Source: Escherichia phage vB_EcoP_24B | Sequence record: HM208303 | Reading direction: 5' to 3' (one strand) | DNA: 57,677 nt | Part shown: piece after piece, positions 6,671 to 47,580 of the stretch | How positions within the stretch are numbered: the stretch's first letter is position 1 | How the letters are laid out: each line of letters begins with the position of its first letter | The notes under the pieces: generated by a model | Told to the model about the DNA's origin: nothing | What the model saw: the letters and a program-made list of their open reading frames with translations, nothing else | Databases searched by the model: none | Position numbers and translations under genes: made by a program

Positions 6671-6803
6671 TCTTTGGGACTCCTGGCTGATTAGGTATGT
6701 CGATAAGGCGTTTCCATCCGTCACGTAATTTACGGGTGATTCGTTCAAGTAAAGATTCGGAAGGGCAGCCAGCAACAGGCCACCCTGCAATGGCATATTG
6801 CAT
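6639..6803 (-). CDS. cIII: cIII (FtsH inhibitor, lysogeny promoting)
   Basis: Internal Met of the 6639-6875 ORF gives 54 aa MQYAIAGWPVAGCPSESLLERITRKLRDGWKRL..., matching lambda cIII. Confidence 0.85.
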   Translation of the reverse strand: MQYAIAGWPVAGCPSESLLERITRKLRDGWKRLIDIPNQPGVPKNGSNTYGYPD

Positions 6804-6875
6804 GGTGTGCTCCTTATTTATACATAACGAAAAACGCCTCGAGTGAAGCGTTATTGGTATGCGGTAAAGCCGCAC

Positions 6876-44817: not shown

Positions 44818-45552
44818 ATGAAGAGTATAGCAACACTGGTTGTGTGTGCAATCTCCGGGATTGCCTGTGTAAATTTATCTGCACATGCAGCAGAAGGAGA
44901 GCATACAATTTCTCTGGGGTATGCGCACTTTCAGTTTCCGGGACTGAAGGATTTTGTAAAGGATGCGACTGCTCATAACAGGGAGACTTTCAGTCATTTC
45001 GTCAACAGAAACTACTTTTCTTCATTGGGCGAATATACAGATGGTCGGGTCAGTGGATATGAAGGCAAGGATAAAAATCCACAGGGCATTAATATCAGGT
45101 ATCGCTACGAGATAACGGATGATTTTGGCGTTATCACCTCTTTTACATGGACGCGTTCTCTCACTAACTCACAGACATTTATTGATGTGCAGTCAGCCGA
45201 TCATACCAGGAAGATTAAGAATCCGGCAGCTTCTGCCAGAACGGATATCAGGGCGAATTACTGGAGTCTGTTAGCGGGGCCTTCATGGCGGGTTAATCAG
45301 TACATGAGTTTATATGCGATGGCAGGGATGGGCGTTGCTAAAGTTAGCGCTGACCTGAAAATTAAGGACAATATTAACAGTAGTGGCGGATTTTCTGAAA
45401 GCAACAGCACGAAAAAAACCTCCCTTGCGTGGGCTGCAGGTGCACAGTTTAACCTGAATGAGAGTGTTACACTGGATGTGGCTTACGAAGGTTCCGGCTC
45501 TGGCGACTGGCGCACGAGTGGCGTTACTGCTGGCATTGGCCTGAAATTCTGA
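44818..45552 (+). CDS. lom: Lom/Ail/PagC-family outer-membrane beta-barrel protein
   Basis: 244 aa; signal peptide, alternating amphipathic strands, C-terminal ...AGIGLKF; followed by a strong terminator. Confidence 0.85.
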   Translation: MKSIATLVVCAISGIACVNLSAHAAEGEHTISLGYAHFQFPGLKDFVKDATAHNRETFSHFVNRNYFSSLGEYTDGRVSGYEGKDKNPQGINIRYRYEITDDFGVITSFTWTRSLTNSQTFIDVQSADHTRKIKNPAASARTDIRANYWSLLAGPSWRVNQYMSLYAMAGMGVAKVSADLKIKDNINSSGGFSESNSTKKTSLAWAAGAQFNLNESVTLDVAYEGSGSGDWRTSGVTAGIGLKF

Positions 45553-45576
45553 CCTGTATCCGGTAACCGTTTACTA

Positions 45577-45599
45577 CCCGCTGTGATGGCGGGTTTTTT
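45577..45599 (+). terminator. Intrinsic terminator (CCCGC-TGTGATG-GCGGG plus T6)
   Basis: Read directly. Confidence 0.6.
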
Positions 45600-45783
45600 A
45601 TTGCCCGTACAGGGCAAAAACCGTAAATTATGCGTGGGTGCCTTTCGGCTGATGGCTGGAGGGTGAACCTGAAGGCCTGATGTGGAAAGGCCCCGAGTCA
45701 ACTTAACGTTAACCCGAGGCCCTAACCATCATACCTTAAGCAAGTAGAAGGTTAGCGCCTCTCTGTAAAAGGAGTCAAGCGCT

Positions 45784-45924
45784 ATGTCGCAAAAATCGCT
45801 TATCACCGTCACAATTTGCATGACGGTTATCTTCACCATCTGGATGTTGCACGGTTCACTGTGTGAGTTCCGGCTGAATTTGTGGGGAGCGGAGTTTGCG
45901 GCGTTCTTACAGTGTAAGCAGTAG
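45784..45924 (+). CDS. hok: Hok/Gef-family type I toxin (46 aa)
   Basis: Hand-translated MSQKSLITVTICMTVIFTIWMLHGSLCEFRLNLWGAEFAAFLQCKQ: single TM helix then SLCE.R...E.AAF as in Hok; AAGGAG 7 nt upstream; 9-bp-stem hairpin just after the stop. Confidence 0.65.
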   Translation: MSQKSLITVTICMTVIFTIWMLHGSLCEFRLNLWGAEFAAFLQCKQ

Positions 45925-45980
45925 GAAAACCGCGACGGGGACGAAAGTCCCCGTCAACTGGTTGCTGAGGTTCAGCCGAT

Positions 45981-46382
45981 ATGGCACCCGTTTCAGGTGA
46001 GAGAATGAACGATAAAATTCTCCGGTATATGCAGCGTGTGGTGAGAAATTCCCGCAACCCTGAATTTATGAATGAAGTTAAAGACGCCTGCCTTAAAAAG
46101 CAGGCGTTTTGTTTTGAGGCACCTGATGGCTTTCTGGTGCTGCGTTCTGTGCTCAGTGCTGATGGTATCCCTTATGTTCTGGTGTTGCTGGGCGTGTGTA
46201 CGGGGAGTAACAGCGTTGAGCGTTATCTGCCGGAGGTGAAGACATTAACCCGTCTGGCTGGCGGACGCTGGGCTGAATTTCATACGGCAAGGCGGGGATT
46301 TATCCGGCTGGGAAAACGTCTGGGCTTTGAGCGAATGCCGGATGATGAGGATGGCTTCATGGTGTTCAGGATAGCGGTCTGA
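45981..46382 (+). CDS. Hypothetical protein (probable start 46005)
   Basis: ORF after the hok-like locus; no motif recognised. Confidence 0.5.
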   Translation: MAPVSGERMNDKILRYMQRVVRNSRNPEFMNEVKDACLKKQAFCFEAPDGFLVLRSVLSADGIPYVLVLLGVCTGSNSVERYLPEVKTLTRLAGGRWAEFHTARRGFIRLGKRLGFERMPDDEDGFMVFRIAV

Positions 46383-46402: not shown

Positions 46403-47131
46403 GTGTGTAAACCAATTGCAATTCACATTCTGACCCTGCCCCGGCAGGGTTTTTTGTTATCCAGGGGGGCCATTATGGGTGGAAGTAAAGGCGGTGGTGA
46501 TACCAAAGTAAAACCAACAGCAGCGCAAATAGCACAGGAAGAAGTGGCCTGGAAAGGGTGGCAGGATTACAAAAATATCCTCCGCCCGGCTGAAGATAAC
46601 TTCATGGAAAAGGTCGATGACCTTAACAGTGAGCAGCAGTACGACAATATTGCTGGCACCACAAATCTGGGGTATCAAAAACAGTTTGGCGAAGCGCGGA
46701 AGGAGCTGGCAAGTAATCTCACTCGGTCCGGTGTTGACCCGTCCAGTGGTCGCTTTAACGCGGTAATGAATGCGAACCAGAGTGATCAGGTAACCGGGCA
46801 GATTGACACAACCACACGGGGGCAGGTATCGCAGGCAGATAAGTATGTTGCCGGGCTACAGGATGTTGCTGCTCTCGGTTCTGGTCAGAAGGCGGATGCG
46901 TTACAGAGTTTTAACTCTCTGGCAGACAGCAGTCTGGCAAAAGCTAAATCGGATGCACAGGCGGCGTTTACGAAACAGCAGGGGCGAGCCTCTCTTGTTG
47001 GTGCTGGTCTGGGTGCGGCAGGTGCGTATGCGATGCATAAGGCTGGCGGTAGCGGAGGAAGTGGCGGTGCTAAAACACCTGGCACCGGCGCTAATGCCAT
47101 TCAGCATCAGGCTCAGAACTGGAGACTGTGA
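46403..47131 (+). CDS. Hypothetical Gly/Ala-rich protein (probable start 46475)
   Basis: Low-complexity ORF; possible internal virion protein. Confidence 0.5.
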   Translation: MCKPIAIHILTLPRQGFLLSRGAIMGGSKGGGDTKVKPTAAQIAQEEVAWKGWQDYKNILRPAEDNFMEKVDDLNSEQQYDNIAGTTNLGYQKQFGEARKELASNLTRSGVDPSSGRFNAVMNANQSDQVTGQIDTTTRGQVSQADKYVAGLQDVAALGSGQKADALQSFNSLADSSLAKAKSDAQAAFTKQQGRASLVGAGLGAAGAYAMHKAGGSGGSGGAKTPGTGANAIQHQAQNWRL

Positions 47132-47580
47132 TTATGGAGTACGGTAAATACGAAACACTTGCAAGATACGGTTATACCGGAGCAGCCCGCCCTCAGGGGG
47201 ACTGGCAGACATCCGCAGCGCTGACCCGCCAGCAATACGACGACTGGCGCACCAGATATTTACCCCGTGTAGCAAGGCTGGCTGACCTTGGGGAGAACAA
47301 CAGTCTGATGAATGCACAGCTTGCACGGGTGGGAGGCCTTGCCACTTCCAGTCTCCGTACAGCGCAGATGGCGCAGGATAACCAGATGGCGAGATACGGG
47401 GTAAACCGCCCGGATAATCCCGACAGTAATACGCTGGGGTTACGTAATGCCCTGGCAATTGCTGGCGCGAAAAATGGTATCCGTGAAGCCGAACAGGATC
47501 GCCAGATGAATATTCTGACGGGGGCTTCTGCACCGGCAAGACAGAAACTGAGTGTTGGCGGCCAACTGGTGGCAGCGTAA
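47128..47580 (+). CDS. Hypothetical protein (150 aa)
   Basis: ATGA-coupled ORF. Confidence 0.5.
   Translation: MIMEYGKYETLARYGYTGAARPQGDWQTSAALTRQQYDDWRTRYLPRVARLADLGENNSLMNAQLARVGGLATSSLRTAQMAQDNQMARYGVNRPDNPDSNTLGLRNALAIAGAKNGIREAEQDRQMNILTGASAPARQKLSVGGQLVAA

Follow-up and report, generated by a model that had tools for sequence, protein, structure and literature searches.

A hok/sok-type toxin-antitoxin cassette predicted downstream of lom in a 933W-like Stx2a phage

The DNA analysed here is a stretch of 57,677 nucleotides (nt) from Escherichia phage vB_EcoP_24B (sequence record HM208303; referred to below as the window), which by its sequence is a 933W-like phage of the Shiga toxin (Stx) 2a-converting type. 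Positions 45616-45989 of this window very probably constitute a self-contained type I toxin-antitoxin cassette of the hok/sok type, carried as cargo just after the lom gene. The evidence for this reading comes from the toxin peptide and its conservation, from covarying RNA helices, from a hairpin that favours the antisense strand and from the confined homology of diverged copies. The 421 bases around the 46-codon toxin open reading frame (ORF) exhibit 99% identity to 933W, VT2-Sakai (Sp5) and approximately 100 further Stx phages. The toxin gene is already known, being annotated in RefSeq and its peptide having been catalogued and reported as toxic; the regulatory layout, which lacks mok, and the carriage of two Hok modules by a single Stx phage represent modest additions that would not surprise a specialist.

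The toxin gene and its annotation history

The toxin gene consists of 46 codons and a stop codon on the plus strand (45784-45924, with ATG at 45784 and TAG at 45922-45924), and its product is the peptide MSQKSLITVTICMTVIFTIWMLHGSLCEFRLNLWGAEFAAFLQCKQ. The hidden Markov model search against the Hok/Gef family that was proposed in the initial annotation of this DNA was performed and returned a match to Pfam family PF01848 (HOK_GEF) at 33.2 bits (E 4e-08; gathering score 22), in which residues 8-44 of the peptide align to profile positions 6-42 of 42. The best NCBIfam match was HokA (NF007290, an equivalog model) at 38.4 bits, which does not reach the cut-off of 89, and the peptide is therefore not considered to be a HokA orthologue. 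When a profile made from twelve named Hok peptides was used to scan the six-frame translation of the whole window, this peptide was the sole Hok-like segment (E 3e-21; runner-up 0.044).

The peptide was shown to comprise one N-terminal, hydrophobic transmembrane helix, followed by a C-terminal SLCE...AEFAAFLQCKQ domain with two cysteines. Its family residues C12-x-T14, L26-C27-E28, E37 and C44 correspond to C16, T18, L30, C31, E32, E41 and C48 in the logo of a published Hok catalogue alignment (bioRxiv 10.1101/2025.08.07.668861). Among 5.8 billion proteins, 56 homologues were identified, derived from Escherichia coli, Shigella and Salmonella; these are mostly 46 amino acids (aa) in length, are mostly labelled 'Hok/Gef family protein' and share a nearly invariant C-terminus (GSLCE[FILV]R...GAEFAAFLQCKQ). 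The 46-codon frame is intact in 80 of 82 distinct full-length cassette copies from other genomes, and the ratio of nonsynonymous to synonymous polymorphism (pN/pS), calculated from 52 representatives, was 0.37 overall and 0.26 for the C-terminal half. As judged from its sequence, the 46-aa ORF encodes a true Hok-family membrane toxin.

In the original GenBank record of 933W (AF125520), the spacer between lom and L0129 carries no annotated gene. RefSeq/PGAP places WP_000078907.1, a 'Hok/Gef family protein', at the same spot, and a phage record from 2025 names it 'MokW-like host killing'. The ORF, which had been described as unannotated in the initial annotation, is thus missing from AF125520 and present in both RefSeq/PGAP and recent phage records. 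Furthermore, the peptide is identical to entry 72_1589 in Table S2 of Escalera-Maurer et al. (bioRxiv 10.1101/2025.08.07.668861), which belongs to the high-abundance Hok cluster 72 and was cloned as LRP157 for an arabinose-induced toxicity assay. The text of that preprint states that 42 of 45 Hok homologues were toxic upon arabinose induction and gives three exceptions, namely 19_179, 60_1482 and 69_1540; since 72_1589 is outside these three, the identical peptide is, going by that text, reported as toxic on overexpression (bioRxiv 10.1101/2025.08.07.668861). The proposed assignment of a Hok/Gef-type toxin gene downstream of lom is accordingly borne out by the Pfam threshold, which was passed, and by the inclusion of this peptide among the homologues so reported.

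The catalogue covered coding sequences only, with Sok, Mok and mRNA structure deliberately set aside, and discusses neither the post-lom site nor co-occurrence with hokW (bioRxiv 10.1101/2025.08.07.668861). Peptides of related cassettes are also catalogued, namely 72_1621, 79_1563 (found here in comparison locus L008) and 82_1289 (in L007). Literature searches for hok in combination with lom and Shiga toxin, or for sok in combination with O157, Hfq or small RNA, returned nothing on this locus beyond the catalogue preprint.

Predicted sense and antisense RNAs

A putative promoter for the hok mRNA is located at 45601-45629 on the plus strand, with a -35 element TTGCCC (45601-45606), a 17-nt spacer and a -10 element TAAATT (45624-45629). 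All cassette variants carry a -10 element of the form TAnAnT at 6 nt ahead of GGGTGCC, and the -35 element is situated outside the conserved cassette; the candidate scores 8/12, which is under the threshold of the consensus scan. The leader itself was matched by Rfam model RF01794 ('sok', hok/sok leader) at 45636-45797 on the plus strand, across the full model (1-157), with 38.4 bits and an E value of 1.6e-6. The consensus of RF01794 opens with GGGUGCUUGAGG, a sequence also present in the hokW leader primer, and closes at the hok AUG; it therefore models the sense leader, placing the 5' end of the mRNA near 45636. From this leader start and the closed fold described below, a full-length hok-like mRNA of ~354 nt is predicted at 45636-45989 on the plus strand, both of its ends being inferred.

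Along this predicted plus-strand RNA, elements resembling those of known hok mRNAs were identified. The tac-like 5' element GGGUGCC UU UCGGC (45636-45649) pairs with the fbi-like 3' element GCCGAUAUGGCACCC (45975-45989), at which the homology of the cassette stops. A ucb-like box, GAAAGGCCCCGA, was delineated by folding of the variants (45685-45696), and alignment to the Rfam hok leader consensus placed a GAGG box (45716-45719) at the position of the mok Shine-Dalgarno (SD) sequence of plasmid R1. The dcb-like or anti-SD box GCCUCU (45757-45762) pairs with the hok SD sequence in all 54 full-length folds. This SD sequence, AAGGAG (45769-45774), lies 9 nt ahead of the ATG and is sequestered in the consensus structure. 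A 9-bp hairpin, GACGGGGAC-GAAA-GTCCCCGTC (45934-45955), begins 10 nt past the stop codon.

The fold of 45636-45992 had a free energy of -155.3 kcal/mol (z-score -7.2), with closure of the 5' and 3' ends by GGGUGCC/GGCACCC and CGGCUGA/UCAGCCG. A consensus structure was calculated with RNAalifold from 54 variants at <97.5% identity, using controls in which the partner column was slid. Five helices were shown to be 95-99% paired in this consensus, compared with 3-70% in the slid controls. The outer tac/fbi helix was 94.7% paired (controls 44-53%) and the inner one 96.8% (controls 3-50%), with double-sided compensatory changes at four of the five pairs of the inner helix. The helix between the hok SD sequence and CCUCU was 96.7% paired (controls 39-51%), the 3' hairpin at 45934-45955 was 99.2% paired, with double-sided changes at five of its nine pairs, and the fifth helix joins the start-codon region to 45895-45904. 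The long-range tac/fbi pairing was present in the minimum free energy (MFE) fold, in the 54-variant consensus and in 53 of 54 individual folds. Both the fbi/tac-type pairing, which had been put forward for checking by RNA folding, and the hairpin 3' of the stop codon, which had been likened to that of stable hok mRNAs, thus exist and covary.

The 45934-45955 hairpin is the probable protective 3' end of a processed mRNA. In the consensus scan, it was terminator-like on the minus strand only. A function as terminator of a convergent transcript was considered and rejected, as no minus-strand gene was found downstream; the AAACC flank of the hairpin is accounted for in the mRNA consensus, where GGUU (45750-45753) pairs with it.

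On the minus strand, a Sok-like promoter is predicted at 45749-45778, with a -35 element TTGACT (45778-45773, 6-11 nt upstream of the ATG), an 18-nt spacer and a -10 element TAACCT (45754-45749). The initial annotation had reported this TTGACT together with the AAGGAG and the 9-bp hairpin, and all three were confirmed at the positions given here. The minus strand of the variants retains CTTG(A)CTCC...GAGGCGCTAACCT, which corresponds to TTGACT or TTGCTC, a spacing of 17-18 nt and TAACCT or TATCCT. The -10 element of R1 Sok is the same as the TATCCT of some copies.

This promoter would direct a Sok-like antisense RNA of ~60 nt on the minus strand, running from ~45744 to ~45684, with both ends inferred and a start expected near 45742. 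It would consist of a 16-bp hairpin (45723-45687) preceded by a single-stranded 5' tail that is variable. The antisense fold had a free energy of -39.3 kcal/mol (z-score -6.9). When both strands of each of the 29 distinct variants were folded individually, the minus-strand hairpin was invariably the more stable one (mean -22.0 versus -13.5 kcal/mol); it contains ~2.5 G-U pairs, which would turn into A-C mismatches in the plus-strand RNA. Such a bias towards one strand favours the view that an antisense transcript is under selection and agrees, as do the conserved hexamers, with the earlier suggestion of a Sok-like minus-strand promoter. RNAalifold applied to a MAFFT alignment missed the main antisense hairpin, because indels in the loop misalign its arms, and gave only a small invariant 6-bp stem.

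The antisense 5' tail and its target represent the least conserved part of the cassette. The sole clustered difference between the window copy and those of 933W, phi346 and AUSMDU is found here, at 45725-45732 (CTAAC-CATCATACC versus CTAACACTTCGTACC), and the same variant occurs in IMG/VR loci L020 and L100. This shared sequence suggests exchange between paralogous cassettes.

In the window copy, no frame starting with ATG, GTG or TTG reads into hok, the frame equivalent to mok being shut by a TAG at 45752-45754, and none of these start codons follows the GAGG box at 45716-45719. A possible upstream start, AUGUGG preceded by GAAGG (45680 and 45682 in the window), is common to the copies of E. 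coli type and would open ORFs of 8-87 codons in varying frames; the Salmonella copies are without it. In R1, translation of mok up to the hok SD sequence is required (PMC9841398). As the mok frame is missing here, the R1 mechanism cannot apply unchanged; the hok ribosome-binding site is probably controlled directly, by an exchange between the GAGG box and the anti-SD box.

Among the 54 full-length folds, 52 have the ucb-like box paired with GAGG (45716-45719), and 53-54 are predicted to adopt the closed state. When the RNA was cut after the 3' hairpin and folded again, the 5' element shifted from the fbi-like element to GAAAGGCCCC (45685-45694); in the same fold, GAGG left the ucb-like box for CCUC (45758-45761), and the hok SD sequence and AUG were more open. 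The SD sequence became more accessible upon truncation in 47 of 54 variants.

By homology with hok/sok of plasmid R1, a stable mRNA of ~354 nt would be transcribed from near 45636 and kept translationally inert by the tac-like/fbi-like pairing, with the hok SD sequence paired to CCUCU (45758-45762). Slow 3' trimming to the 45934-45955 hairpin would strip the fbi-like element, upon which the 5' end would pair with 45685-45694 and GAGG would capture the anti-SD box, freeing the ribosome-binding site. The labile ~60-nt antisense RNA would pair with the leader at 45684-45744, prevent activation and mark the duplex for RNase III. If antisense synthesis stopped, the peptide would be made and inserted in the inner membrane, where it would depolarise or kill the cell; loss of the element, prophage induction or a shut-off of transcription may serve as triggers.

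More speculatively, Hok clusters 72, 79 and 82 might represent a mok-less variant of hok/sok, in which GAGG is purely an RNA switch element that frees the hok ribosome-binding site after trimming and is covered by the antisense RNA so that the anti-SD box closes the site again, with no leader peptide involved. As a corollary, phages of the 933W type might carry two Hok modules that do not cross-react and that possibly have different jobs, with the hypervariable antisense tail (45725-45745) setting the specificity that allows copies to coexist. Natural variants of the hok/sok switch that possess tac, ucb, GAGG, dcb and fbi without a conserved mok render the need for leader-peptide coupling testable.

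Relation to other hok systems and mobility of the cassette

Identity of the locus with the published hokW-sokW was rejected, as the primers in PMC8621323 encode another peptide, of 51 aa (MKQQKAM...VFVDYESEK), and the hokW 5' coding sequence was not found in the window, even when three mismatches were allowed. The hokW-mokW-sokW locus of 933W/Sp5 is located at 58460-58734 of 933W, on the opposite strand and ~13 kb downstream of the present locus. HokW is a HokD-like peptide of 51 aa in cluster 35, with 37% identity over 35 residues to the present peptide of cluster 72, and its locus has an annotated mok frame, whereas the present cassette does not. The two are alike in being Hok type I toxin-antitoxin cargo of the same Stx phage family, in an antisense RNA to the leader, which is a predicted one in the present cassette, and in the leader start GGGUGC (primer YO-351, PMC8621323). 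The 933W position of hokW/mokW/sokW (58460-58734) would fall beyond the window, ~1 kb past its end. Homology of the window extends to 933W position 57482, and its last ~69 nt (57609-57677) are unalignable with 933W.

Among named homologues, HokA of E. coli K-12 comes closest, with 45% identity over 47 residues; it is 50 aa in length compared with 46 aa for the present peptide, and the two fall into separate 60% clusters (93 and 72, respectively). In both peptides, the cysteines are hard-coded (SLCE and ...FLxCK), so that TadA editing is unnecessary.

Compared with R1 hok/sok, as its model is summarised in PMC9841398, the cassette exhibits the same order of elements (tac, ucb, GAGG box, dcb, hok SD, post-stop hairpin and fbi). 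A candidate antisense promoter across the region of the hok SD sequence and a predicted antisense hairpin of the form GCCUCG...CGGGGC likewise resemble those of R1. In contrast, peptide identity is 30%, and R1 hok/sok is plasmid-borne rather than located in phages and chromosomes. Further differences are that no mok start follows GAGG here, that the mok frame is closed and that no U-tract stands behind the post-stop hairpin. Among R1, hokW, the K-12 loci and the present cassette, only the last lacks a conserved mok frame.

The limits of the whole cassette (~374 nt, 45616-45989, plus strand) were defined from diverged copies. E. coli copies with 77-84% identity align only over query positions 16-18 to 389-390 of 45600-46000, regardless of the flanking genes, and column conservation falls beyond 45616-45989. 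The frame, the C-terminus of the peptide and the RNA helices are kept across E. coli, Shigella and Salmonella. An exact-pattern scan detected the cassette in at least 120 IMG/VR viral loci, and 1750 of 5426 complete E. coli genomes carry it, in one to nine copies each.

Insertion sites of the cassette were shown to be diverse. Copies follow lom in 933W-like phages, separate J from the tail-fibre gene in a lambda-like prophage (L008, 2470-2954), lie after ogr/Delta at the ends of P2-like prophages (L005, L006 and L014-L017, ~2200-2900) and occur in the O157 urease island (L007, 2366-3680). In Salmonella, tandem arrays of two to three cassettes, ~500-700 nt apart, are present beside DUF1131 or DUF4875 genes (L009, 2501-3131; L010, 2501-3135; L011, 2501-3987; L012, 2501-3643), and neighbouring copies in these arrays differ in peptide and antisense tail. 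Judged by these alignments, the cassette is transferred whole among cargo sites that are unrelated to one another.

Possible roles and neighbouring features

Two roles for the cassette were considered about equally plausible. According to one, which is advanced with reserve, it would aid lysis in the manner of the Sp5 hokW-sokW locus, with the antisense RNA being lost on RecA-dependent induction and the peptide permeabilising the inner membrane before holin and endolysin act, so that phage release is raised and no maintenance or defence role is involved. The location of the cassette in the late part of the phage genome (tail and cargo) is consistent with this role, as is the behaviour of hokW-sokW, for which mitomycin C removed sokW RNA and HokW appeared ~1 h before endolysin R (PMC8621323). 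The hokW-sokW locus speeds growth arrest, and its deletion halved phage release after induction, which is the only experimental role reported (PMC8621323). That study, however, deleted hokW-sokW only, leaving the present locus in the mutant, and the same cassette is also found in a non-phage island (L007) and at P2-like prophage ends, where the timing of lysis is less obviously relevant.

The other role, proposed in the initial annotation and just as tentative, is that of an addiction or defence module, which would kill cells that lose the prophage or abort infection by phages that shut off host transcription. Stable mRNA combined with labile antisense RNA fits addiction and defence alike, and prophages show a four-fold enrichment of hok genes. 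For hokW, the 933W record gives 'prophage maintenance', which is a guess of its annotators, and R1 hok/sok on a high-copy plasmid lowers T4 plating, as cited in PMC8621323. Conversely, the catalogue preprint reports that hok genes are not enriched near defence systems and cites the failure of chromosomal hokA, hokB and hokC to mediate post-segregational killing (bioRxiv 10.1101/2025.08.07.668861).

This failure is one of several points that weigh against a working self-contained hok/sok-type cassette at 45616-45989. The RF01794 match is under the gathering score (38.4 versus 59) and so went unreported in the gathering-threshold scan of the window. The consensus promoter scan yielded no promoter on either strand, both candidates being below threshold, and the promoter calls therefore rest on conservation and on analogy with R1. 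The consensus scan found no canonical terminator behind either RNA, and the antisense hairpin lacks a following U-tract; the antisense RNA as a whole and the two ends of the mRNA are themselves predictions. There is no conserved mok frame, as 33 of 54 variants lack an upstream ORF into hok and the remaining variants carry upstream ORFs of varying start, frame and length. Finally, the open state (tac/ucb together with GAGG/anti-SD) is predicted in the MFE fold of only 30 of 54 truncated RNAs, and truncation increases mean SD accessibility only slightly, from 0.30 to 0.34. The missing mok-type ORF of the window copy, the weak promoter candidates and the low Rfam score would also suit an inert or decaying relic, unexpressed or not activatable, as has been proposed for most K-12 chromosomal hok loci. 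Such a relic is unlikely, given that the ORF is intact in nearly all copies (80 of 82) with a pN/pS of 0.37, that compensatory changes uphold the tac/fbi helix and the 3' hairpin, and that strand-specific G-U pairs occur in 29 of 29 variants. Moreover, new sites continue to be colonised by the cassette, which also occurs in tandem arrays, and the peptide is among those reported as toxic in the preprint text. A chance resemblance of the ORF and motifs in a non-coding lom spacer could be argued from the very short ORF, uncalled in the original 933W annotation, and is extremely improbable in view of a Pfam E value of 4e-08 over the curated threshold, 56 homologues mostly labelled Hok/Gef, and a conserved frame, C-terminus and set of helices.

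In terms of annotation, older Stx-phage entries like AF125520 overlook a genuine toxin gene, and the 933W family carries two Hok modules rather than one. As the hokW-sokW deletion study left the second cassette in place, its two-fold effect on release may be too low an estimate of the part played by Hok toxins in Stx-phage lysis, or a confounded one.

The gene upstream of the cassette, lom, encodes an Ail/Lom outer-membrane protein (44818-45552; Pfam PF06316, 113 bits), and the consensus scan placed its terminator at 45576-45594. Downstream of this terminator, a perfect hairpin, TTGCCC-GTACA-GGGCAA (45601-45617), overlaps the -35 element of the candidate hok mRNA promoter and lies outside the conserved cassette. 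On the other side, the downstream ORF of 133 aa (L0129 homologue, 45981-46382) has no Pfam or NCBIfam match, and its annotated ATG (45981) is inside the fbi-like element, with cassette homology stopping at 45989. A second in-frame ATG at 46005, after GGTGAGAGA, may be the true start. The small L0132 homologue (WP_000540391.1; the equivalent of 47062-47313, L002 4533-4784) is labelled 'bacteriocin' in PGAP and hypothetical in phage records. Other gathering-level Rfam matches in the window are located at 6758-6816 (minus strand), 18289-18486 (plus), 21679-21927 (plus), 22902-23107 (plus) and 23109-23161 (minus), and comprise the Lambda cIII thermoregulator, c4 antisense RNA with a1/b1 targets and isrK, three tRNAs, STnc100 and AsxR, all of which are established curated families.

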